This document shows, piece after piece, positions 3,918 through 14,510 of a stretch of DNA of 64,000 nt. Position 1 is the first letter of the stretch. Each line of letters begins with the position of its first letter. Below the pieces are notes generated by a model. The model was not told where the DNA came from and searched no databases. It worked only from the letters and a program-made list of their open reading frames with translations. Origin of the DNA: an uncultured Spirochaetaceae bacterium (lineage in GTDB: Bacteria > Spirochaetota > Spirochaetia > DSM-27196 > SLST01); the NCBI GenBank assembly GCA_964537725.1, contig CAZICD010000004.1, forward strand, positions 23,903 through 87,902, written 5' to 3'. The translations under genes were made by a program, and so were the position numbers.

Positions 3918-4880
3918 CTACCCGTGGACCACCGCCCGGTTCCGGCCCGCCTCCTTCGCCCGGTAGAGCGCCTGGTCGGCAGCTTCACGGATCGCCTCGA
4001 GCGAACGTCCGTGCCGCGGAAACTCGGCCACCCCCTGGCTGGTCGTGACCTTCACGATGCCCGAGGGGCCCGGCACGTCCAGCTCCTCCACGGCCGTGCG
4101 AATCGTCTCGGCGATCGCGAGCGCCTCCTCGGCGCGGCGGCCCGGGAGGATGATCGTGAACTCGTCACCCCCGTAGCGCGCGGCGATATCGCGCTCGCCA
4201 ACCGCGTCGCGGACCGACGGCGCGACGGTCGCGATCAGCTCGTCGCCGAACGCCTGACCGTACTCGTCGTTGACCTCGTGGAACCGGTCCAGGTCCATCA
4301 TGATCAGGCTGAACACGCCGTTCTTCACGCGCGCTTCGGCCACCTGCTGCTCGAGCGCGCCGTCCAGATAGCGACGGTTGTACAGCCCGGTGAGGTCGTC
4401 GGTGATCGCGCGTCGCCGTGCGCCCTCGCCCCACTGCACGAGATCGGAGAGGAACGAGCTCGTCGCGTTGAGCCGGTTCGTGGTGATCGCGACCATGCGA
4501 TACATGATCTTGATCGCGGTCCCGGGGTGCTGGTCCATGAGCGCGAAGAAGTCGGTCTTTCGGAGTCGATAGAGCCGGCCGCCGTCGACCATGACGCAGG
4601 TCGCAGACCGCGGCGCGTCTTCGAAGATCGCCATCTCGCCGAAGAAGTCGCCCGGACCGAGCTCGGCCACGTCGACCGACGAGCCGTCCTGCGTCGCCAC
4701 CCGGATCGCGACGCGTCCGTCGCTGACGATGTAGAGGTCCCTGCCCTCTTCGCCCTGGTTGAACACGGCGTCGTCGGCGCTGCACTCGGTCTCTTCGAGA
4801 TAGCCCTGCAGGATCTCGAGCTCGTCGTCCTGGAGGTCGCCGAGTATGTCGACGCGCCGCAGAAGGCCCGCAGAGATCAT
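3918..4880 (-). CDS. Diguanylate cyclase with N-terminal cyclic-nucleotide-binding domain (cNMP-GGDEF)
   Basis: CAP-family cNMP-binding signature GDFFGEMAIF..PRSAT. The GGDEF domain has an intact YGGDEF motif (4158..4175), plus DLDRFHEVNDEYG and ALYRAKEAGRNR. Confidence 0.85.
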   Translation of the reverse strand: MISAGLLRRVDILGDLQDDELEILQGYLEETECSADDAVFNQGEEGRDLYIVSDGRVAIRVATQDGSSVDVAELGPGDFFGEMAIFEDAPRSATCVMVDGGRLYRLRKTDFFALMDQHPGTAIKIMYRMVAITTNRLNATSSFLSDLVQWGEGARRRAITDDLTGLYNRRYLDGALEQQVAEARVKNGVFSLIMMDLDRFHEVNDEYGQAFGDELIATVAPSVRDAVGERDIAARYGGDEFTIILPGRRAEEALAIAETIRTAVEELDVPGPSGIVKVTTSQGVAEFPRHGRSLEAIREAADQALYRAKEAGRNRAVVHG

Positions 4881-5860
4881 GGTCGGCCTCCGTCGTCGTG
4901 CGGCGTGAGCACCCGATCGCCGCCCTCGTCGCGGGCCTGGAAGACGAGCTGGTGGGCGTGAGTCACGAGCTCTTCTCCGCTCGACCCGTGGATCGGGTAG
5001 ACGGTCAGTCCGACGCTGAAGGTGAGCGGCACCTTCCGGTCGCCGGTGACCGGGGAGAGGTCGGCCTGAGCCATTCGCTCGCGGATCTCGCGCGCCTTCG
5101 CGAGGATCGTGTCCTTCGGGGTGGACGGAAGGACGACCGCGAATTCGTTACCGCGAAACCGCACCGCGATACCCGAATCGCCGAGGATGCCCTTGAGCTG
5201 ATTCGCGAGGATGCGCAACACGTGGTCGCCCACCTCGTGGCCGAACGTGTCGTTGATGAGCTTGAAGTTGTCGGGTTTGACGATGAGTATGCCGGCCTCG
5301 CCCCTGTTGCGCGCGAGCAGACCGCCGAGCTCGTCGTCCAGGTAGCTCTTCGAGTACAGCCCGGTGAGCTTGTCGCCGAAGACCTGCTGCCGTAATTCCT
5401 GCACCCAGCTCGAGTTCTCGCTGACGAGCCGGTTCGTGGAACGGATCCGGCCGGCCACGATGACGAGGAACTGGTGGAGCATCCGCGCGAAGAGCTGCGG
5501 GTGGTCCATCATCAGCTCGTCGAACGAGGTCCCGCGGCTCGGGAAGATGAGAACCCGACTCGCTCCCTCGCTGACCGCGCTCGCCGAGCGCACGGCCTCG
5601 CTCAGGAAGTCCTGCTCGCCGAAGCTCTCGCCGGCGACGAACCGCGCGAGATCGATCTCCCGGCCGTCCTCGCCGCGCTTGACGATGCGAACCTCGCCGC
5701 GCTCGATGACGAACAGCTCGCGCTCGGCCGTGCCCGCCCGGAAGATGTACTCCCCCGGATCGAAGTCGTGGAAGCTCGCGTGCTCGGCGAGCACGCTCAT
5801 GTCCTGCTGGCTGAGCTGCGAGAAGAGGTCGACCGATGACAGAAGATCGAGTTTCTCCAT
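4877..5860 (-). CDS. cNMP-binding domain protein with degenerate GGDEF domain (RGNEF)
   Basis: cNMP-binding signature GESFGEQDF..VRSAS. The GGDEF-fold has KPDNFKLINDTFGHEVGD and FQARDEGGDR, but the active-site motif reads RGNEF (5141..5155). ATGA overlap with the downstream paralog. Confidence 0.85.
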   Translation of the reverse strand: MEKLDLLSSVDLFSQLSQQDMSVLAEHASFHDFDPGEYIFRAGTAERELFVIERGEVRIVKRGEDGREIDLARFVAGESFGEQDFLSEAVRSASAVSEGASRVLIFPSRGTSFDELMMDHPQLFARMLHQFLVIVAGRIRSTNRLVSENSSWVQELRQQVFGDKLTGLYSKSYLDDELGGLLARNRGEAGILIVKPDNFKLINDTFGHEVGDHVLRILANQLKGILGDSGIAVRFRGNEFAVVLPSTPKDTILAKAREIRERMAQADLSPVTGDRKVPLTFSVGLTVYPIHGSSGEELVTHAHQLVFQARDEGGDRVLTPHDDGGRP

Positions 5861-5945
5861 GGAACGGCCAATTATGCCCGCATTGGTCGCGCCGGTTCAA
5901 CCCGGTACCGACCCGCAAGCACGCCTGAACCCTCGGCCGGGCTGT

Positions 5946-6533
5946 TCAGCGTCGTCCGGCGAGCTCGGCGATGTCGCGGCCGATCGACCGCTGCACCGCG
6001 TAGACGGCGATGTCGAAGGCGAAGAGGAAGCCGCCCTGCACGATCAGCGACCTCCCGAAGCCCGCGAGCCTCGCAGCCTCCGGGCCTCCCCGCCGCGCCC
6101 GCTCGGTGAGGTAGAACCCGGCCGCGACGTAGCCCACATCGATCCCGGCGTTGAACAGCAGCGTGTCCTCGATCCGGTTCTGCGCCACGAGCGACTCGGT
6201 GAGATCGAGCGAGGGCGCCTCCTCGATCCGGCGTGCCGACCCGATGAGCGACGGCACGGCGAGCGCGGCGTTCACGACGTTCCAGCCGGCGTTCATCTGA
6301 TGAAAGGCGGCCCGTTCGGGATCGTCGGCGGTGAACGAGAGAATCGTTCCGGCGGTGAGGTTCACGGCGCTCCAGGAGGCGAGGACGGTCATCGCCGTGC
6401 GGGTGACCCGTTCGCGCCTGATGTTGTACGCTTCCAGCGATTCCTGCGCGGTGAGCGAGGCGCCCGCCAGCGCGAGGAGCGCGAAGACCAGGAAGCGACG
6501 GGGCGACGGAGCGCGTGCGACGGTCGTCTGCAT
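5946..6533 (-). CDS. Hypothetical membrane protein with signal peptide and about 4 TM segments
   Basis: The internal start MQTTVARAPSPRRFLVFALLALAGASLTAQE gives a plausible signal peptide, followed by hydrophobic helices. The longer track ORF (to 6872) would run antisense through the neighbouring gamma-CA-like gene. Confidence 0.55.
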   Translation of the reverse strand: MQTTVARAPSPRRFLVFALLALAGASLTAQESLEAYNIRRERVTRTAMTVLASWSAVNLTAGTILSFTADDPERAAFHQMNAGWNVVNAALAVPSLIGSARRIEEAPSLDLTESLVAQNRIEDTLLFNAGIDVGYVAAGFYLTERARRGGPEAARLAGFGRSLIVQGGFLFAFDIAVYAVQRSIGRDIAELAGRR

Positions 6534-6569
6534 ACGTCGAATGTACTGCCGGCGGAGGAGGAGCGGACA

Positions 6570-7154
6570 ATGAGAGCAACGGCACCGGGCGGAGGAACGC
6601 TCTATTCGTACGAGGAGAAGTCGCCCACGGTCGCCGCGAACGCGTTCGTCGCGACTGGTGCGGTTATCATCGGCGACGTCGAGCTCGGAGCGAACGCGAG
6701 CGTCTGGTTCAACTGTACCGTGCGCGGCGACATCCACTACATCCGGATCGGCGAGGCGACGAACATCCAGGACAACTCGGTGCTCCACGTCACGCACGAG
6801 ACCCACCCGCTCGTCGTGGGCAACCGGGTCACGTGCGGTCACGGCGTGACGCTGCACGGGTGCACCGTCCACGACGAATCGCTCATCGGCATCGGCGCGA
6901 TCGTGCTCGACGGCGCGGTCGTCGAGAGCGGTGCGATGGTCGCCGCCGGCGCGCTCGTCCCGCCGGGCATGGTCGTTCCGTCGGGGATGCTCGTCGCGGG
7001 CGTTCCGGCGAAACCGCTTCGGCCGCTGCGCGACGCCGAGCGGGAGAACCTCGCCGCCTCCGCCGAGCGGTACGTCGCCTACGCGCTATCGTACGCGCTA
7101 TCGTACGCGCTATCGTACGCGCGCGAGCACCTCTCGCCGGGCGACGAGGGGTGA
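6570..7154 (+). CDS. Gamma-class carbonic anhydrase family / hexapeptide-repeat (LbH) protein (YrdA/PaaY-like)
   Basis: Left-handed beta-helix hexapeptide repeats and the His triad context (SVWFNCTVRGD, NIQDNSVLHV, GHGVTLHGC). This is only the 3' part of track ORF 5364..7154. Confidence 0.85.
   Translation: MRATAPGGGTLYSYEEKSPTVAANAFVATGAVIIGDVELGANASVWFNCTVRGDIHYIRIGEATNIQDNSVLHVTHETHPLVVGNRVTCGHGVTLHGCTVHDESLIGIGAIVLDGAVVESGAMVAAGALVPPGMVVPSGMLVAGVPAKPLRPLRDAERENLAASAERYVAYALSYALSYALSYAREHLSPGDEG
7080..7122. repeat. 12-bp in-frame tandem repeat (tacgcgctatcg x3 plus partial) encoding (YALS)n
   Basis: Read directly: three exact copies at 7080-7091, 7092-7103 and 7104-7115, then a partial fourth. 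The translated C-terminus is AYALSYALSYALSYAREH. Confidence 0.9.
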
Positions 7155-7249
7155 CGCGGTCGCGGTCGACGACGTGGCGCGGGTTGGCCCCGGCCGCTAT
7201 ACTGGAAGCATGCTGGCCGTGGCAAACGGTCGGCGGAAAGGAGAACACG

Positions 7250-7927
7250 ATGCACGCCAGAAACCGAACGCGCCTCGCGGCGGTACTGTTCGCGGCGATC
7301 CTGCTCGCGGTCGTCGCGACCACAGCGGCGGCGATCGACCCGGCGAACCTCAACCGGATCACCTTCGTGAACAACACCGGGTACGACATCGTCTACCTCT
7401 TCTTCTCGCCCGGCGACTCCGACTACTGGGGCGCGGACATCCTGGGCACGACGAGGACGCTCGACGACGGAGAGAAGGTCGGCTTCTACATCCATTACCC
7501 CGATGCGACGAACGCCTTCGATTTCCTCGCCATCGACGAAGACGGCGACGCGTACATCATCTGGGACTACGAGATCACCGACGGCGACTCGGCGGTGATC
7601 GAGGTAACGCTCGAGGACCTGGAGGGGGGCTACGACCTCCCCGAGCTCGCCACGGTCAATTTCATCAACGAAACCGGCTACGACATCTGGTTCGTCTTCT
7701 TCTCGCCCGGGGATTCGAGGATGTGGGGTATCGACATGCTCGACGACGAGACGATACTGGAGGCCGACGAGACGCTCAGCCTCTTCGTGCCGGCGACGGA
7801 CACCGTGACCCGGTACGACTTCCACGGCGTGGACGCGGACGAAGACGCCTACGAGTTCTGGGTCGAGCTCTCGGACGCACAGTCCGAGTACACGTACGCG
7901 ATCGAGTTCTCCGACCTCGTCGACTGA
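7250..7927 (+). CDS. Secreted hypothetical protein made of two ~100-aa tandem repeat domains
   Basis: ATG at 7250 preceded by GGAAAGGAG. Signal peptide MHARNRTRLAAVLFAAILLAVVATTAAA. Two internal repeats share F(V/I)N(N/E)TGYDI..(L/V)FFSPGDS..WG.D(I/M)L ... DEDGDAY/DADEDAY. Confidence 0.7.
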   Translation: MHARNRTRLAAVLFAAILLAVVATTAAAIDPANLNRITFVNNTGYDIVYLFFSPGDSDYWGADILGTTRTLDDGEKVGFYIHYPDATNAFDFLAIDEDGDAYIIWDYEITDGDSAVIEVTLEDLEGGYDLPELATVNFINETGYDIWFVFFSPGDSRMWGIDMLDDETILEADETLSLFVPATDTVTRYDFHGVDADEDAYEFWVELSDAQSEYTYAIEFSDLVD

Positions 7928-7987
7928 GGCCGGGCGGCGGCACTTCGCGCTTTCGCTCCGGTCCGATTTCTGCTATCATCGTGCGCT

Positions 7988-8902
7988 ATGCATGACCTGA
8001 TCATCATCGGTGCCGGACCCGCCGGATTGGCCGCAGCGCTCTACGCGACGAAGAAGCGCCTCGACTACCTCGTGCTCAGCAGGGATCTGGGCGGCAAGAG
8101 CAACTACTCGGTGGATCTGCCGGAAACCGAGCGCGGCGCCACCATCCGGGCCGACGAGCTGGTCACGGTCTACCGCAGCACGCTCGAGTACCTGCGTCAC
8201 TCGTACCGCCTCGTCGGCGTCACCGGCCTCAGACACGACGACGACGGATTCACCGCCGAGCTCGAGGACGGCTCGACCGAGTCGGCGCGCGCGGTCATCG
8301 TGTCCACGGGCACGCACGTCCGCAAGCTCGACGTACCGGGCGAGCTCACCTTCCTGTCGCGCGGGCTCGGCTACTCATCGATCAGCTATTCGCATCTGTT
8401 CCGCGGCAAGCGCGTGTTCATCGCCGGGAACACCGATCGCGCCGTGAACTCGGCGATCGAGCTGTCGATCCACGCGGACGCGGTGACGCTCGCGCTGCTG
8501 CCCGGCGGGGCATGCGATTCGACGCTCGTCGAACGCGCTCGCGGGCTCGACCGCGTCGACGTGATCGAGAACGCGACGATCGACGAGTTCCGCGGCGACG
8601 AGTACGCTCGCGAGGCGGTCGTCTCGAGCGACGGCGCAAGCCGCACGATCGAGGCCGACGGTTTCTTCGTGGAGCCGGAGCCGGTGCCGAACGCGGATTT
8701 CGTCTTCGACGAAGTCGGTCGCGACAAGGACGGTTACATCGTCGTAGACGGTACGAACGGCACGAACGTTCGCGGCCTCTACGCGGCCGGAGACGTGACG
8801 GGCAACGGCTACGAGCAGATCCTCGTCTCGCTCGGCGAGGGAGCAAAGGCGGCGCTCTCCGCCTACCGCTACCTGCTGAGCACCGGGCTCGAGGGCCGCT
8901 GA
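7988..8902 (+). CDS. Thioredoxin-reductase-like FAD-dependent oxidoreductase lacking the CxxC redox centre
   Basis: N-terminal FAD motif IIIGAGPAGLAAALYA and C-terminal GLYAAGDV..G motif. SSISYS sits where TrxB/AhpF have CATCDG. The second dinucleotide motif is degraded (FIAGNTDRAVNSA). Confidence 0.8.
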   Translation: MHDLIIIGAGPAGLAAALYATKKRLDYLVLSRDLGGKSNYSVDLPETERGATIRADELVTVYRSTLEYLRHSYRLVGVTGLRHDDDGFTAELEDGSTESARAVIVSTGTHVRKLDVPGELTFLSRGLGYSSISYSHLFRGKRVFIAGNTDRAVNSAIELSIHADAVTLALLPGGACDSTLVERARGLDRVDVIENATIDEFRGDEYAREAVVSSDGASRTIEADGFFVEPEPVPNADFVFDEVGRDKDGYIVVDGTNGTNVRGLYAAGDVTGNGYEQILVSLGEGAKAALSAYRYLLSTGLEGR

Positions 8903-8966: not shown

Positions 8967-8995
8967 TTGACAGCAGCGCCTCAGGGACCTAGAAT
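8967..8995 (+). promoter_or_regulatory. Near-consensus sigma70 promoter (TTGACA - 17 nt - TAGAAT) of the hydrogenase operon
   Basis: TTGACA at 8967..8972, a 17-nt spacer and TAGAAT at 8990..8995, within the only AT-rich stretch of this region. A ~70-nt leader with palindromes TATCGATA (9008..9015) and CAACCGGTTG (9038..9047) precedes the GGAGGAGG RBS. Confidence 0.5.
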
Positions 8996-9068: not shown

Positions 9069-9584
9069 ATGGTGAACGAGCACGTACGCACGCACGTACC
9101 GGAAGTGGAGCGTGACGAGTCGCTGATCGCTCTCGACCGCTACATCGACGAGCACATGGACATGGAGGGCAATCTGATTCCCGTCCTCCAGTACGCGCAG
9201 CAGGTCTTCGGCTACCTTCCCAAGCCGGTGCTGAAGCACATCAGCGTCCGGCTCGACATTCCGTACAGCGAAGTGTCCGGCGTGGTCACCTTCTACTCGT
9301 TCTTCTCGACGGTGCCTCGCGGCGAGCACATCGTCCGGGTCTGCCTGGGGACGGCGTGCTACGTCCGCGGCGGCAAGGAGGTCCTCGCCGCCTTCCGCGA
9401 CGAGCTCGGCATCGAGGTTGGTGAGACGACCGACGACCGTCTCTTCTCCCTGGAGGTGGGCCGATGCTTCGGCGCGTGCGGACTCGCGCCGGTCGTGATG
9501 ATCGACGACGAGGTCCACCAGCGGGTCAAACCGGCGAAGGTCCGCGAGCTGCTCGCCGGATACCGAAGGGAGGCAGCCGAATGA
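9069..9584 (+). CDS. hydC: [FeFe]-hydrogenase HydC subunit (NuoE-like thioredoxin-fold [2Fe-2S] protein)
   Basis: NuoE/HydC motifs VCLGTACYVRGG and GRCFGACGLAPV. Start at 9069 after GGAGGAGG. The stop overlaps the hydB start (ATGA at 9581). Confidence 0.9.
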   Translation: MVNEHVRTHVPEVERDESLIALDRYIDEHMDMEGNLIPVLQYAQQVFGYLPKPVLKHISVRLDIPYSEVSGVVTFYSFFSTVPRGEHIVRVCLGTACYVRGGKEVLAAFRDELGIEVGETTDDRLFSLEVGRCFGACGLAPVVMIDDEVHQRVKPAKVRELLAGYRREAAE

Positions 9585-12500
9585 ACCGCATCGCCACGAG
9601 GAAGGATCTCGACCGTGTCGCCGCCGAACGAACGGCAGCCGCCGAGAAGCGGCAGCTGCGGTTCCACGTGTGCATGGGCGCGAGCTGCATCGCATCGGGC
9701 GCGAGCGAGGTACTCGAGGCGCTCGAGGCCGAGCTCGCCGGGCGCAACGGCACCGTCGAAGTGAGCGGAACCGGCTGCATGGGGCCGTGCGTCCGTGGTC
9801 CCGTCATCCGGGTCCTCCCGGCCGGCGACACGTTCACCGGCGTCCGGGCGGAAGATATCCCGGGAATCGTCGCGCGAAGCTTCGGCGAAACCGAGGCAGA
9901 CGCCGCGGCGCCGGATGCAACCCTGGGAGACTTCTTCGCGCCGCAACAGCGGATCGTCCTGCGCAACTGCGGCTCGATAGATCCCGCCGCGATCGAGGAC
10001 GCGATCGCCCGCGGCGCGTACGCCGCGCTCGAGCGCGTAATCAGCGGCATGTCTCCCGAGGACATCGTCGCGACGATGAAGGAGTCGGGACTCCGCGGTC
10101 GGGGCGGCGCGGGCTTCCCCACCTGGCTGAAATGGGACCTCACCCGGAAGGCGGAGGGCGAGGTCAAGTTCGTCCTCTGCAACGCGGACGAGGGCGACCC
10201 CGGCGCGTTCATGGACCGCAGCGTCCTCGAGGGCGACCCCCACTCGCTCATCGAAGGCATGGCGATCGCCGCGCGCTGCGTGGGGGCGAGCCAGGGCGTG
10301 GTCTACGTCCGAGCCGAGTACCCGCTCGCGATCGAGCGGCTCGAGCACGCGCTCGGGCAGGCGCGCGAGGCCGGGCTTCTCGGCGAGTCGATCTTCGGCA
10401 GCGACTTCTCATTCGACCTGGAGATCCGGCGCGGGTCGGGAGCCTTCGTCTGCGGCGAGGAGACCGCGCTCATCAATTCGATCGAGGGCAAGCGCGGCGA
10501 GCCGCGGCCGCGGCCGCCCTTCCCGGCGCAGAAGGGGCTCTGGGGCAAGCCGAGCCTGCTCAACAACGTGGAGACGTACGCGAACGTCGCGGCGATCTTC
10601 GCGAACGGCGCACCGTGGTTCGCCGCGCACGGGACACCGGAGAGCCGCGGCACGAAGGTCTTCGCGCTCGCCGGGGCGATCGAGAACACGGGGCTGGTCG
10701 AAGTACCGATCGGCACGACGCTGGGCGAGCTCGTCTACGACATAGGAGGGGGCGTCAAAGGAGGTCGCCCCTTCAAGGCCGCGCAGATCGGCGGCCCGTC
10801 GGGCGGCTGCGTCCCGCGAGATCACCTCGACGTGCCCCTCGACTACGAGTCGCTGCAGGAGCTCGGCGCGATCATGGGCTCCGGCGGGCTCATCGTCATG
10901 GACGACGAGACGTGCATGGTCGACGTCGCGCGCTTCTTCCTCGAGTTCGTCCAGGAAGAGTCGTGCGGCAAGTGCGTGCCGTGCCGCGTGGGCACCAAGC
11001 GGATGCTCGAGATCCTCGACCGGATCACCTCCGGCGAGGGCGAGATGGAGGACATCGACCGGCTCGTGGAGCTCGGCAATCAGATCAAGGAGACCGCGCT
11101 CTGCGGCCTCGGGCAGACCGCGCCCAACCCGGTGCTCTCGACGATACGGCACTTCCGCGACGAGTACGAAGAGCACATCCGCGACCGTCACTGCGCCGCG
11201 GGCGTCTGCCCGGGGCTCGTCCGCGCGCCGTGCGAGAGCGCGTGTCCTGCCGGCGTGGACGTACCCGGCTTCGTGGCGCTCGTCGGCGAGCGTCGGTACG
11301 CCGAGGCGCTCGCGCTGCACCGCAACCGCAACCCGTTCGCGGCCGTCTGCGCGCGCGTCTGTTTCCACACGTGCGAGGACCACTGCCGACGCGCCTCGCT
11401 CGACGACCCCGTCGCCATCCGGGGTATCAAACGGTTCATGGTCGACCAGGAGGTCGTCATCCAGCTCCCCACGGTTCGCGAGAGCGAGGAGAACGCCGCG
11501 CGCAAGGTCGCGATCGTGGGTGCGGGTCCCGCCGGCCTCTCGTGCGCCTACTTCCTCGCACGGCTCGGCTACCGGCCGACGGTCTTCGAGGGCGAATCGC
11601 GGCCGGGCGGCATGCTCGTGCAGACGATTCCCGCCTACCGGCTCCCCCGAGAGACCCTCGCGCGGGAGATCCGGATGATCGAACAGCTCGGAGTCGATAT
11701 CCGCACCGAGCAGAAGCTCGGCCGCGACGTGAGCGTGGCGGGTCTGCGCGAGGAGGGGTACGAGGCGCTCTTCCTCGGACTGGGCGCGCCGCAGTGCATG
11801 GGCATGGGAATCGACGGCGAGGACGCGAAGGGCGTCGTGCGCGCGGGGGATTTCCTGCGTCAGTACAACATCCGCGGCTCGGTGCCGGTCGGCAAGGACG
11901 TCGTCGTCGTGGGCGGCGGTAACGCAGCGGTGGACGCCGCGCGAACCGCACTGCGCCTGGGGGCGGAGAGCGTCACGATCATCTACCGGCGCACGCGCGA
12001 GCAGATGCCCGCCTACGCGGAGGAGATCGAGGAGGCGCTGCTCGAGGGAGTCGAGCTGCGCACGCTGACGCAGCCGGTGGAAGTAACGACCGACCGAACC
12101 GGCGCCGCGAAGGCGCTCAGGTGCGAGTCGATGACGCTCGGTGGCTTCGACCGCAGCGGCCGGCGGCGCCCGAGGCGCTCGGGCGAGGAGAGTTTCCTGC
12201 TGCCGGCCGACCAGGTGATCGTCGCGATCGGCCAGCGGCTGGACGAGTCGGCGCTCGGCGAGCTCGCCGAGCTCGAGTTCACGGACGCCGGTTTCATCGC
12301 CGCCGACCCGCAGACCGGCCAGACGAGCGAGCCGTGGATCTTCGCAGGAGGCGACGCGGCGAGCGGGCCCGAATCGGTCGTCACCGCGATCGCCGCCGGA
12401 GAACGAGCGGCCATCGGCATCAACCTCCTGCTCACCGGACGCGCAGACGCGTTCTGGCGCGAGCCGCAGGAGGTCGACGTCGCCTACGACCCGGACGCCG

Positions 12501-12703
12501 AACCGGCGCCCTACCACCGCGAGCCGTACAGCACGATTCCGGTCGAGCGACGGCGGCACAACTTCGACGAGGTCGAACAACCGTGGTGCGAGGCGGTGGC
12601 GATGCGTCAGTCGCACCGGTGCCTGCGCTGCGATTACGGGAAGCAGATTGCGAAGCCCGTCGAACCGACCAGCGTGACGAAGAAGGAGGAGCTCCATGCC
12701 TGA
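9581..12703 (+). CDS. hydB: [FeFe]-hydrogenase HydB flavoprotein subunit (NuoF-like) fused to a GltD/NfnB-like NADPH-dependent FAD oxidoreductase module (1040 aa)
   Basis: N-terminal [2Fe-2S] region (CMGASC..GCMGPC). NuoF motifs GLRGRGGAGFP, CNADEGDPGAF, ESCGKCVPCR and ALCGLGQTAPNP. From about 11192 it shows GltD-type features: CAAGVCPG..CESACPAGVDVP, VAIVGAGPAGLSCAY, VVVVGGGNAAVDAART..IIYRR and FAGGDAA. Confidence 0.9.
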   Translation: MNRIATRKDLDRVAAERTAAAEKRQLRFHVCMGASCIASGASEVLEALEAELAGRNGTVEVSGTGCMGPCVRGPVIRVLPAGDTFTGVRAEDIPGIVARSFGETEADAAAPDATLGDFFAPQQRIVLRNCGSIDPAAIEDAIARGAYAALERVISGMSPEDIVATMKESGLRGRGGAGFPTWLKWDLTRKAEGEVKFVLCNADEGDPGAFMDRSVLEGDPHSLIEGMAIAARCVGASQGVVYVRAEYPLAIERLEHALGQAREAGLLGESIFGSDFSFDLEIRRGSGAFVCGEETALINSIEGKRGEPRPRPPFPAQKGLWGKPSLLNNVETYANVAAIFANGAPWFAAHGTPESRGTKVFALAGAIENTGLVEVPIGTTLGELVYDIGGGVKGGRPFKAAQIGGPSGGCVPRDHLDVPLDYESLQELGAIMGSGGLIVMDDETCMVDVARFFLEFVQEESCGKCVPCRVGTKRMLEILDRITSGEGEMEDIDRLVELGNQIKETALCGLGQTAPNPVLSTIRHFRDEYEEHIRDRHCAAGVCPGLVRAPCESACPAGVDVPGFVALVGERRYAEALALHRNRNPFAAVCARVCFHTCEDHCRRASLDDPVAIRGIKRFMVDQEVVIQLPTVRESEENAARKVAIVGAGPAGLSCAYFLARLGYRPTVFEGESRPGGMLVQTIPAYRLPRETLAREIRMIEQLGVDIRTEQKLGRDVSVAGLREEGYEALFLGLGAPQCMGMGIDGEDAKGVVRAGDFLRQYNIRGSVPVGKDVVVVGGGNAAVDAARTALRLGAESVTIIYRRTREQMPAYAEEIEEALLEGVELRTLTQPVEVTTDRTGAAKALRCESMTLGGFDRSGRRRPRRSGEESFLLPADQVIVAIGQRLDESALGELAELEFTDAGFIAADPQTGQTSEPWIFAGGDAASGPESVVTAIAAGERAAIGINLLLTGRADAFWREPQEVDVAYDPDAEPAPYHREPYSTIPVERRRHNFDEVEQPWCEAVAMRQSHRCLRCDYGKQIAKPVEPTSVTKKEELHA

Positions 12704-14510
12704 GATCACGATCAACAACCAGCAGCTCGTCGTGGAGCCGGGCTCCACGATCCTCGAGGCCGCCCAGGCGGCAGGCATTCACATCCCGACGCTCTGTCAC
12801 CTCGAGCATCACGCGGCGCAGGGGGCGTGCCGGGTCTGCGTCGTGGAGGTCGAGGGCGCGAAGACGCTGCTCGCATCGTGCGCAACCCCGGTTCGCGACG
12901 GCATGGTCGTGCGTACCAACACGAAGCGCGTCCGCGCGGCGCGGCGCACCGTCGTCGATCTCCTGCTGAGCGAGCACGAGGGCAACTGCCAGTACTGCGA
13001 CCGCAGCATGGACTGCGAGCTCCGTGAGCTCGCGTACACCACCGGTATCGGGGAGCCGTTCTACCCGGGCGAGCGACCGCCGGTCGTCCTCGACCGAAGC
13101 ACGCCCGCGCTCGTCCGCGACAGCGGAAAGTGCATCAAGTGTCGACGGTGCGTGACCGCGTGCAACGAGGTCCAGCAGGTCGGCGCGCTCTTCCCGCAGT
13201 ACCGCGGTTACGGGACGCTCATCGCCCCCGCGTTCGCGGGCGACCTCGACGATGTGGTCTGCGTCCAGTGCGGCCAGTGCGCCGCCGTCTGCCCGGTCGG
13301 CGCCATCTCCGAGCGCGATCACCTGGAAGCCGTGTGGAACGCGCTCGAGGATCCCGACCGGCACGTCGTCGTGCAGACCGCACCGGCGGTCCGCGCCGCG
13401 CTCGGCGAGTGCTTCGACTACGAGCCGGGAACGCTCGTCACCGGCAAGATGATCACCGCGCTGCGCGAGCTCGGCTTCGACGCCGTCTTCGACACCAACT
13501 TCACCGCCGACCTCACGATCATGGAGGAGGGCACCGAGCTGCTGACGCGGCTGAAGCACGCGATCGTGGGCTCGGATGCCGCGGAAGACGCAGCCGGCGC
13601 GGCGCACGGTCACGCGGCCCCCGGTCCGCTGCCGCAGTTCACGAGCTGCTCGCCCGGCTGGATCAAGTACGCCGAGCACTTCTACCCCGAGTTCCTGGCG
13701 AACGTCTCCACGTGCAAGTCGCCGCAGCAGATGTTCGGCGCGCTCGCGAAGACCTGGTACGCCGAGCAGGCGGGGGTCGATCCGGAGAAGATGACCGTCG
13801 TGTCGATCATGCCGTGCACGGCCAAGAAGTTCGAGGCCCAACGCGACGAGATGTCGGCGAGCGGTTACCAGGACGTCGACTACGTGCTCACGACGCGCGA
13901 GCTGGGTCGGATGATCCGCTCCGCGGGAATCGACTTCGACTCGCTGGACGATGGAACCATGGACTCGCCGCTGGGCTTCTCGAGCGGGGCGGCCGACATC
14001 TTCGCGAATACCGGCGGCGTGATGGAGGCAGCGCTGCGCACCGCATGGGAGATCGTCACCGGCCGGGAGCTCCCGGCCGACGATCTTCACGTCGCTCCGG
14101 TGGCCGGACTCGAAGGCATCAAGGAGGCATCGCTCGTCGTCACCGATCCGCTGCCGGAGTGGTCGTTCCTCGACGAGGTCGAGCTGCACGTCGCCGTCGC
14201 CCACGGCCTGGGCAACACGCGAAAGCTGCTCGACGAGATCAAATCCGGGCGGCGAACGTACCACTTCGTCGAGATCATGACCTGCCCGGGCGGGTGCATC
14301 GGCGGGGGTGGCCAGCCCCGGATGACGACCGACGCGGTGCGACGAGCACGGATCGAAGCGATCTACCGCGAGGACGAGGGCAAGCCCGTGCGCAAGTCGC
14401 ATCTCAACCCGGCAATCGTCGAACTGTACGAACGGTACCTCGGCGAGCCGCTCGGCGATCGCTCTCACCGCCTGCTGCACACGCTCTACGAGCAGCGACT
14501 GCGGGTGTAG
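12696..14510 (+). CDS. hydA: [FeFe]-hydrogenase catalytic subunit HydA (M3 architecture, HydABC/group A3-like)
   Basis: Plant-type [2Fe-2S] N-terminus, a His-ligated cluster (HEGNCQYCDRSMDC), and two ferredoxin motifs (CIKCRRCVTAC, CVQCGQCAAVCP). H-cluster motifs are TSCSPGW (variant of TSCCPxW), MPCTAKKFE and EIMTCPGGCIGGGGQP. Confidence 0.9.
   Translation: MPEITINNQQLVVEPGSTILEAAQAAGIHIPTLCHLEHHAAQGACRVCVVEVEGAKTLLASCATPVRDGMVVRTNTKRVRAARRTVVDLLLSEHEGNCQYCDRSMDCELRELAYTTGIGEPFYPGERPPVVLDRSTPALVRDSGKCIKCRRCVTACNEVQQVGALFPQYRGYGTLIAPAFAGDLDDVVCVQCGQCAAVCPVGAISERDHLEAVWNALEDPDRHVVVQTAPAVRAALGECFDYEPGTLVTGKMITALRELGFDAVFDTNFTADLTIMEEGTELLTRLKHAIVGSDAAEDAAGAAHGHAAPGPLPQFTSCSPGWIKYAEHFYPEFLANVSTCKSPQQMFGALAKTWYAEQAGVDPEKMTVVSIMPCTAKKFEAQRDEMSASGYQDVDYVLTTRELGRMIRSAGIDFDSLDDGTMDSPLGFSSGAADIFANTGGVMEAALRTAWEIVTGRELPADDLHVAPVAGLEGIKEASLVVTDPLPEWSFLDEVELHVAVAHGLGNTRKLLDEIKSGRRTYHFVEIMTCPGGCIGGGGQPRMTTDAVRRARIEAIYREDEGKPVRKSHLNPAIVELYERYLGEPLGDRSHRLLHTLYEQRLRV

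Follow-up and report, generated by a model that had tools for sequence, protein, structure and literature searches.

What can an [FeFe]-hydrogenase do with a flavoprotein subunit that carries two separate sites for pyridine nucleotides? The question is raised by hydB::gltD, a gene on the plus strand (9581-12703) of a 64,000-nucleotide (nt) stretch of DNA from an uncultured Spirochaetaceae bacterium (assembly GCA_964537725.1, contig CAZICD010000004.1), which we refer to as the window. An initial annotation, made from the DNA letters, had described the gene product as a HydB subunit fused to a complete GltD/NfnB-like module, so that a NuoF-type site for NADH and flavin mononucleotide (FMN) and a GltD-type site for NADPH and flavin adenine dinucleotide (FAD) would lie on one chain. 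Our answer, which we hold tentatively, is that hydB::gltD encodes the beta subunit of a three-subunit HydABC/Bfu-type [FeFe]-hydrogenase, and that this enzyme would be ferredoxin-independent, coupling H2 to NAD(H) and NADP(H) together.

The gene is read in one frame without an internal stop and its translation is 1040 amino acids (aa) long. Frame, Pfam and NCBIfam bear out the description of a thioredoxin-like [2Fe-2S] region followed by a NuoF core, and every motif that the initial annotation had quoted stands in the translation where it had been placed (Table 1). The domain search that it had proposed as a check matched all four families named, Complex1_51K, NADH_4Fe-4S, Fer4_20 and Pyr_redox_2. 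NCBIfam assigns aa 134-533 to nuoF_fam (TIGR01959, E=2.4e-146) and aa 502-1017 to the 'PRK12771 NAD(P)-binding protein' subfamily (NF009410, E=2.2e-143). In a Foldseek search with a single-chain AlphaFold2 prediction (predicted local distance difference test 87.2, predicted template modelling score 0.84), the N half of the model matched BfuB chains (target TM-score 0.83-0.94) and the C half matched StnC, NfnA and PfNfnL (for 5jca_L, target TM-score 0.80 and root-mean-square deviation 2.0 Å); none of the solved chains spanned both halves.

Separate hydB and gltD genes joined by a missed stop or a frameshift would have been the simplest way to explain such a protein away, but comparative data have already refuted an artefact of assembly or sequencing, and we give it practically no weight. 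Searched against 5.8 billion proteins, the sequence matched more than 120 protein clusters, each of ~1040 aa, with a common domain set and 65-92% identity, among them proteins from the isolates Sediminispirochaeta bajacaliforniensis and Alkalispirochaeta americana (P0060, P0083). A scan of ~186,000 species-representative genomes, one per species, found 426 stretches encoding relatives, and the locus counts given here rest on the best 80 of them. In these 80 independent assemblies, which include the complete chromosomes OW818680 and OY763414, the fusion is in frame without exception. The junction consists of just 7 residues between two invariant Cys motifs, counted from C543 to the first cluster ligand of the GltD-like module, in the motif PCESACP.

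The fused gene lies within a HydABC operon, as had been claimed, with hydC upstream and an intact hydA downstream. The order is promoter-like site, hydC, hydB::gltD, hydA and then a convergent alpha-amylase gene. The TGA of hydC overlaps the ATG of hydB::gltD as ATGA, a GGGAGG Shine-Dalgarno sequence lies upstream of the hydB::gltD start at 9581, and the hydB::gltD stop and the hydA start overlap by 8 nt; the three genes are translationally coupled, under one promoter-like site. The hydC product matches 2Fe-2S_thioredx (PF01257, E=4.7e-49) and NCBIfam HoxE/NuoE, with its four Cys present. HydA is laid out as [2Fe-2S], His-ligated [4Fe-4S], 2x[4Fe-4S], H-cluster domain and small-subunit-like tail, matches Fe_hyd_lg_C (E=6.7e-93), Fe_hyd_SSU, Fer2_4, NADH-G_4Fe-4S_3 and Fer4_7, and scores 861 bits against NF040763 ('NADH-dependent [FeFe] hydrogenase group A6', cutoff 765). 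Its L1, L2 and L3 motifs (FTSCSPGW, MPCTAKKFE and EIMTCPGGCIGGGGQP) are those of groups A3/A6, by the patterns TSC[CS]PxW, MPCxxKxxE and ExMxCxxGCxxGGGQP, and its closest solved relatives are the bifurcating HydA1 proteins of T. kivui and A. woodii (E~1e-170).

The operon is conserved along with the fusion. The survey of adjacent genes that the initial annotation had called for finds hydA downstream in 71 of the 72 best loci with enough flank and a HydC homolog upstream in 70 of 71, and the order hydC, fusion, hydA holds even in a representative of only 51% identity. Each of the 63 complete downstream HydAs carries L1, L2 and L3, and we rejected a degenerate, non-catalytic HydA on this count; the TSCSPGW variant of L1 was likewise rejected as the sign of a sensory hydrogenase, the same motif being carried by the active HydA1 of A. 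woodii. The closest relatives of hydB::gltD are proteins of Spirochaetota metagenome-assembled genomes (92-97% identity). The best 80 loci also include Verrucomicrobiota (Kiritimatiellia, Lentisphaerae, Opitutia), Planctomycetota (Thermoguttaceae), Fibrobacterota, Bacteroidota (Prolixibacteraceae, Paludibacter) and Chloroflexota, and the 60-70% identity of all three subunits across phyla suggests that the operon moves horizontally. In two loci a canonical hydC-hydB-hydA operon adjoins the fused one divergently (L027, 874-5153; L044, 432-4077, minus strand), with HydB 46-54% and HydA 45-48% identical. The two forms occur side by side and are therefore not redundant.

What was exchanged, and where, can be located from the solved BfuB/HydB chains, namely A. 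mobile NiFe-HydB, the HydB proteins of A. woodii, T. kivui and T. maritima, S. ovata StnB and the NfnB proteins of C. saccharolyticus (Csac) and T. sibiricus. They cover aa ~25-550 of the query at 47-65% identity (56-58% over the core for the BfuB of Csac NfnABC and of A. woodii HydABC). Alignments to nine solved BfuB chains end at aa ~545-553, and because the last ~55 residues of these chains, the 2x[4Fe-4S] C-terminal domain, find no match, the ferredoxin-type domain of HydB is truly replaced. The initial annotation had put this replacement at about nt 11192; the HCAAGVCPG motif begins at nt 11189, and the BfuB alignments end there. By the family definition of Schut et al. 2022 (PMC9304861), the protein has the FMN-binding, SLBB (weak) and NuoF [4Fe-4S] domains of BfuB, and has BfuC and BfuA alongside it in hydC (PF01257) and hydA (Fer2_4, NADH-G_4Fe-4S_3, Fer4_7); the Pfam scan gave no Fer4-type match, and the IPR017896 dicluster (B3/B4) is missing.

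Residue-by-residue alignment places the border at the sequence HIRDRHCAAGVC, which matches HIRDKKCPAGVC of A. woodii and T. kivui HydB; the alignments to 7q4v_B, 8a6t_B, 8oh5_B and 7t2r_B run through it and then stop. In A. woodii and T. kivui this motif is part of a 3Cys+1His Zn site and the mobile 2x[4Fe-4S] C-terminal domain (B3/B4) comes after it (PMC11829005). By analogy with that site, C445, H532, C538 and C543, which are invariant in an alignment of 45 sequences reaching down to 37% identity, would form a 3Cys+1His Zn site here as well (PMC11829005). Judged from these alignments, the domain swap is precise, with HydB up to the Zn hinge and the NADPH module beyond it.

Upstream of the border the bifurcation core has been retained. 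Its elements (FMN loop, B1, Zn hinge, N-terminal [2Fe-2S] and HydC C1) are all kept, with ligands that are invariant or nearly so: Cys31/36/66/70 of the N-terminal [2Fe-2S] cluster are conserved in 125-127 of 127 relatives, and the ligands of the [4Fe-4S] cluster B1, Cys462/465/468/508, are invariant in the relatives' alignments. The NuoF site retains Lys184 and Glu293/294, which correspond at a constant offset of +20 to Lys164 and Glu274 of Csac NfnB, the residues that bind the adenine ribose of NADH (PMC11829005); their presence is consistent with a preference for NAD(H) at this site.

The retained core bears directly on whether the enzyme is coupled at all. The simplest reading of two dinucleotide sites is that FMN and FAD are alternative ports on one iron-sulfur (FeS) wire to the H-cluster, making a non-bifurcating hydrogenase that accepts either NADH or NADPH. 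The loss of the known ferredoxin-docking domain from hydB::gltD would fit such an enzyme, and non-bifurcating NADH-dependent HydAB(C) hydrogenases that differ from bifurcating ones in their HydB domains do exist (PMC7311640). We consider this unlikely nonetheless: the N-terminal [2Fe-2S], the Zn site and HydC C1 are retained and conserved, and the core is 55-65% identical to BfuBs shown by experiment to bifurcate. Non-bifurcating HydBs, for their part, reportedly lack the N-terminal [2Fe-2S] domain. Moreover, a link between NADPH-FAD and NAD-FMN with no gating would presumably act as a futile NADPH:NAD+ transhydrogenase, short-circuiting the two pools.

Downstream of the border, the residues expected of a protein of the type of GltD, NfnB or domain I of DPD are present: ligands for two [4Fe-4S] clusters, an FAD motif (G647-x-G649-x-x-G652) and an NADPH motif (G778-x-G780-x-x-A783, with Y802-R803-R804). 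The module Cys, K617, R687 and the FAD and NADPH motif residues are invariant or nearly so among the 127 relatives, and the cofactor residues are also kept in the 45-sequence alignment. A module lacking its dinucleotide-binding residues on proper alignment, which would have undone the initial reading, is not what the alignments contain, and NuoF-type and GltD-type sites do appear to share one subunit; cofactor binding by the module can be inferred on this basis.

The order of the parts is another matter. GltD, NfnB and DPD domain I carry the RCLxC helix at the N-terminus of Fer4_20, whereas in hydB::gltD the first ~20 positions of the Fer4_20 profile, including the RCLxC ligand pair, sit at the C-terminus of the protein, so that the module Cys are split 2+4+2 (C551/C555, C590/C594/C598/C602 and C1014/C1017). 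The tail RRRHNFDEV...RCLRCD aligns to the N-terminus of TmNfnB and, in StnC and Csac NfnA, to the end of the GltD-like insert. When the permutation was undone in silico, by moving the tail before aa 549-640, the Fer4_20 match rose from 68.9 to 91.3 bits and its coverage from profile positions 21-108 to 1-108. We conclude from the sequence that the GltD-like module is circularly permuted; the description of it as complete holds only for a circular permutation.

The same permutation, with RCLxC at the end, is found in StnABC/NfnABC (S. ovata 8oh5, C. saccharolyticus 9bov, T. sibiricus 9n5u), Bfu-type NADH-dependent ferredoxin:NADP+ transhydrogenases that give the best matches to the C half. The scores fall from 367 bits for the GltD-like insert of Csac NfnA (9bov_A), 343 bits for that of StnC (8oh5_C) and 338 bits for T. 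sibiricus NfnA (9n5u_A) to 299 bits for TmNfnB, 265 bits for PfNfnL and ~172 bits for DPD and true GltD. On alignment, Lys617 falls on StnC K170, an unusual ligand of the FAD-proximal cluster where NfnB has Glu (PMC10482914); TmNfnB has Glu in the aligned position too. R687 corresponds to StnC R239, and the NADPH motifs are shared as well. Scores, permutation and Lys ligand together assign the module to the non-bifurcating StnC/NfnA(Bfu) type.

This assignment matters for an Nfn-like arrangement, in which the FAD would itself bifurcate, or the surface-exposed distal [4Fe-4S] cluster of the module would dock ferredoxin, and H2, NAD(H), NADP(H) and ferredoxin would all be linked. The module is homologous to NfnB/NfnL, as the scores and the structural match to 5jca_L attest, and in NfnB/NfnL two [4Fe-4S] clusters lead to ferredoxin (PMC10482914); Greening et al. 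placed ferredoxin at a GltD-type domain in their proposal (PMC11216029), and a distant locus of the NuoF::GltD family with an FeS-only partner (L081, Table 1) suggests an external one-electron carrier. NfnAB/NfnSL (T. maritima 4ylf, P. furiosus 5jca) and GltD share with the module the fold, the two [4Fe-4S] clusters, FAD and NADPH. They are collinear, however, and NfnB has Glu instead of the invariant Lys617 and needs an NfnA/PyrK-like partner; no gene for such a [2Fe-2S]-FAD subunit was found in the operon or in the annotated flanks, which comprise the first ~39 kb of the window. In StnC and NfnA(Bfu), with which the permutation is common, the FAD is by experiment non-bifurcating and forms the end of the chain (PMC10482914, PMC11829005). 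The Nfn-like option of the initial annotation, with FAD as the bifurcating flavin, is thus disfavoured; we regard the arrangement as improbable, and a bifurcating FAD as less likely than a ferredoxin-independent coupling of H2 to both nucleotides.

In the ferredoxin-independent hydrogenase that we propose, the FMN would react with NAD(H) and the FAD with NADP(H), the module's two clusters would stand in for B3/B4 and NADP(H) for ferredoxin, and the FMN-B1-C1 bifurcation core, being retained, would do the gating. The enzyme is predicted to catalyse 2 H2 + NAD+ + NADP+ <-> NADH + NADPH + 2 H+. The proposal draws on Stn and Csac NfnABC, where NADPH simply enters through the FAD of this type of module, at the end of the cluster chain, bifurcation takes place at the FMN-[4Fe-4S]-[2Fe-2S] site of the BC core, and ferredoxin receives low-potential electrons from the C-terminal domain of BfuB (B3/B4) (PMC10482914, PMC11829005). 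NADP(H) would occupy the place of ferredoxin because this core is retained while the ferredoxin-passing domain has been swapped for an NADPH module. Coupling of both pools to H2 is the most economical reading, since the residues of both the NuoF and the GltD site are kept, and coupled use is suggested because the gating elements (C1, Zn hinge and B5) are all retained.

With in vivo potentials of ~-280 mV for NAD and ~-370 mV for NADP (PMC10482914), the mean of the pair is ~-325 mV, which by the Nernst equation at pH 7 corresponds to H2 evolution up to ~100 Pa, against ~3 Pa for NADH alone. With ~100 rather than ~3 Pa within reach, the coupling would be thermodynamically meaningful, although weaker than coupling to ferredoxin, and in the reverse direction it would allow the formation of NADPH driven by H2 at low H2. 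More specifically, the enzyme might carry out a ferredoxin-free bifurcation, with H2 as mid-potential donor, NAD+ as high-potential and NADP+ as low-potential acceptor across the ~90 mV gap between them in vivo; we consider this possible but doubtful.

Several points weigh against a ferredoxin-independent enzyme. NADP(H) lies just ~90 mV below NAD(H) in vivo and the energetic gain would be modest. In Stn/NfnABC the same module is a mid-potential entry on BfuA, not a low-potential exit, and its place in the electron path of the present enzyme is deduced solely from the position at which it is spliced into the chain. Ferredoxin might dock elsewhere: HydA is one candidate, and the module's distal cluster, as in NfnSL, another. 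Finally, the FeS-only NuoG-like partner in L081 is difficult to account for unless there is also a one-electron partner from outside.

Comparison with characterised systems sets out what is shared and what is particular to the fused form. The HydABC enzymes of T. maritima, A. woodii and T. kivui (7p5h, 7q4v, 8a6t), founding members of BfuABC, have the same trio of hydC, hydB and hydA. Their HydB core is 47-58% identical, with the N-terminal [2Fe-2S], the FMN loop, the [4Fe-4S] cluster and the motif HIRDxxCxAGxC, their HydC has the [2Fe-2S] cluster, and the H-cluster motifs of HydA are intact, with TSCSPGW as in A. woodii. They differ in that the HydB of the window lacks B3/B4, the proposed ferredoxin site, and has ~490 aa of Fer4_20 and FAD/NADPH domains instead. 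StnABC/NfnABC share the type of module but carry it in a NuoG-like A subunit without an H-cluster, their B subunit keeping B3/B4; in the window, by contrast, the module is on B, in the place of B3/B4, and A is a true hydrogenase. Hnd of S. fructosovorans is a HydABC-related enzyme that uses NADP(H). Hyt of C. autoethanogenum is another (PMC6085437). Unlike the fused form, both use NADP(H) at the NuoF-type FMN site, still use ferredoxin and have no GltD-like FAD module.

The fusion itself has been noticed in print before. In Vallitalea guaymasensis L81 (peg.3894-3896), a GltD domain substitutes for the two-[4Fe-4S] domain of HydB in a hydrogenase cluster (PMC6163223), and HydB with a glutamate-synthase domain was modelled in archaeal [FeFe]/[NiFe] hybrid hydrogenases, which have additional NiFe and NuoG-like subunits (PMC11216029). 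Both cases, from 2018 and 2024, are descriptions based on sequence or AlphaFold, and the architecture, which we liken to ours by description, is probably the same. As far as we found, neither is a characterisation: the initial annotation knew of no biochemical study of a HydB-GltD fusion, which agrees with a full-text literature search that returned no biochemical or structural study, most subscription-journal papers being outside the coverage of that search. The fusion is not mentioned in the text of the Bfu census and one of its supplements, nor in Losey 2020 or the Hydrogenedentota paper. For the census a BfuB is a protein with four InterPro domains, one of them the 4Fe-4S ferredoxin-type IPR017896 (PMC9304861), and the fusions were probably missed by it because hydB::gltD has no such domain.

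NuoF::GltD fusions at 37-50% identity also occur with partners other than a hydrogenase. Besides the loci listed in Table 1, a fusion lies in a formate-dehydrogenase cluster in a second Dehalococcoidia locus, L077, as it does in L076; in L083 and L086 no evident redox partner gene is nearby; and ~650-aa proteins that consist of NADH_4Fe-4S and the module alone are also found (P0220). From these arrangements the fusion is best described as a modular diaphorase, with the window gene in its hydrogenase-linked branch.

Among these loci, L082 may encode a glutamate-synthase-like complex with a NuoEF-type input module, its NuoF::GltD being 37-40% identical to that of the window and adjoining a Glu_synthase (PF01645) gene. 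A similar link was proposed for Vallitalea (PMC6163223), and the module of hydB::gltD could in principle donate electrons to a GltB-like large subunit encoded elsewhere. We judge this very unlikely for the window gene: no glutamate-synthase gene lies in the operon or the annotated flanks, the next gene is hydA in nearly all of the best loci, and the module is nearer to StnC, NfnA and NfnB than to true GltD.

The partial pressure of H2 at which a fermenter can dispose of reducing power is set by hydrogenases of the HydABC type, and both the way in which these bifurcate and the place where they meet ferredoxin are under active study. The fused variant is a natural experiment on both, in which the ferredoxin-docking domain has been exchanged for an NADPH-FAD module and the rest of the bifurcating core kept, in operons spanning hundreds of species from sediments, guts and bioreactors; in genome surveys these presumably pass for ordinary 'A3/bifurcating' hydrogenases. 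To specialists the architecture will be no surprise. A demonstration that NADH and NADPH are coupled without ferredoxin would be new, and there are isolates that encode the enzyme. Should H2 be exchanged with NADH plus NADPH, fermentative redox-balance models that now assume ferredoxin and NADH would need revision, and the enzyme would be a candidate catalyst for H2-driven regeneration of NADPH. Ferredoxin-free bifurcation would, if real, provide a direct route from H2 to NADPH at environmental H2, spread by gene transfer across phyla. To our knowledge it would also be the first bifurcating enzyme without a ferredoxin or flavodoxin partner. The NuoF::GltD unit would then be a 'dual-nucleotide diaphorase' that also serves formate dehydrogenases and others (L076, L087, L081, L082).

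Table 1. Features of the hydCBA operon, domains and motifs of hydB::gltD, and distant loci with NuoF::GltD fusions. Nucleotide positions are those of the window unless a locus is named.
Feature	Position	Strand	Description
Promoter-like site of hydCBA	8967-8995	+	TTGACA-17 nt-TAGAAT, 11/12 consensus positions; consensus match only
hydC	9069-9584	+	NuoE/HoxE-type thioredoxin-like [2Fe-2S] subunit, 171 aa, cluster C1
hydB::gltD	9581-12703	+	Fused flavoprotein (beta) subunit, 1040 aa
N-terminal thioredoxin-like [2Fe-2S] domain of HydB	9653-9871	+	Cluster 'B5' (Bfu naming), Cys31/36/66/70
NuoF/BfuB core	9980-11179	+	FMN/NAD(H) loop, SLBB, four-helix bundle with [4Fe-4S] B1
Zn-site motif and fusion junction	11174-11224	+	HIRDRHCAAGVC
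Fer4_20 part of module	11225-11452	+	C551, C555, C590, C594, C598, C602 (6/8 Cys for two [4Fe-4S]) and Lys617
FAD and NADP(H) Rossmann domains	11504-12400	+	Pyr_redox_2, NF009410, alignment to 9bov_A, 8oh5_C, 4ylf_B
Permuted C-terminal segment	12533-12634	+	RRRHNFDEV...RCLRCD, aa ~985-1018, ligands C1014, C1017
hydA	12696-14510	+	[FeFe]-hydrogenase catalytic subunit, 604 aa
2Fe-2S_thioredx	aa 25-97 of hydB::gltD		Pfam, E=2.4e-6; 27.9 bits vs cutoff 24.8
Complex1_51K (PF01512)	aa 166-337 of hydB::gltD		Pfam, E=1.6e-47
SLBB, weak	aa 361-409 of hydB::gltD		Pfam, E=1.3e-5; 25.4 bits vs cutoff 27
NADH_4Fe-4S (PF10589)	aa 448-532 of hydB::gltD		Pfam, E=3.6e-37
Fer4_20	aa 540-624 of hydB::gltD		Pfam, E=2.7e-20, profile positions 21-108 only
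Pyr_redox_2	aa 642-940 of hydB::gltD		Pfam, E=9.4e-37
GLRGRGGAGFP	aa 170-180 of hydB::gltD		FMN/NAD(H) loop
ESCGKCVPCR	aa 460-469 of hydB::gltD		Cluster motif
HCAAGVCPG	aa 537-545 of hydB::gltD		nt 11189 onward
APCESACP	aa 549-556 of hydB::gltD		
VAIVGAGPAGLSCAY	aa 643-657 of hydB::gltD		
VVVVGGGNAAVDAART	aa 774-789 of hydB::gltD		
IIYRRT	aa 800-805 of hydB::gltD		
L076 (Dehalococcoidia)	L076:4481-13221		FdhD-NuoE-fusion-FdhA (molybdopterin, 890 aa)-MobB; fusion 50% identity
L087	L087:2183-8117		Fusion, 705-aa molybdopterin oxidoreductase and 216-aa Fer4 protein, without NuoE
L081	L081:506-5697		NuoE, fusion, FeS-only NuoG-like subunit (403 aa); 132-aa protein in between
L082	L082:6239-16976		Two tandem NuoE and NuoF::GltD pairs, small Fer2_4/Fer4 protein, Glu_synthase (PF01645) gene

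The start of the operon could be placed with the help of its promoter-like site, one of two found with a near-consensus sigma-70 pattern against 0.2 expected. It falls in the 166-nt gap between the gene upstream and the hydC ATG at 9069, leaving an AT-rich leader of ~70 nt, and GGAGGAGG precedes this ATG as a Shine-Dalgarno sequence. A mechanical open reading frame (ORF) call had hydC begin at a TTG at 8967; this start was rejected, the TTG being part of the -35 hexamer and the ATG at 9069 having the Shine-Dalgarno sequence. HydA has a ~20-residue Ala/Gly/His-rich insertion, GSDAAEDAAGAAHGHAAPG, at aa 289-310 (13560-13625, plus strand), just before the L1 motif, that is not in the HydA of A. 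woodii, T. kivui or C. pasteurianum.

The gene upstream of the gap (7988-8902, plus strand) encodes a 304-aa flavoprotein like thioredoxin reductase and AhpF (TIGR01292, 190 bits, below the cutoff of 343), without a CxxC redox disulfide and with a degenerate NAD(P)H loop. We considered it as a fourth subunit and rejected it: only the three closest relatives (L001, L008, L021) have it upstream of hydC, and the promoter-like site intervenes. No hydEFG, PFOR, Rnf or Nfn genes were found in the annotated ~39 kb, no recognised gene lies in the interval 7154-7988, and the wider window, with sugar ABC transporters, alpha-amylase, two-component systems and GGDEF proteins, gave no metabolic clue. The G+C content of the whole window is 67%. 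In the mechanical ORF at 5364-7154 (plus strand), a gamma-carbonic-anhydrase/hexapeptide match is confined to the last ~170 residues (aa 413-577), and the real gene probably covers far less than this ORF. On the minus strand, 3918-4880 and 4877-5860 are paralogous genes that lie in tandem, overlap and encode cyclic-nucleotide-binding GGDEF diguanylate cyclases.

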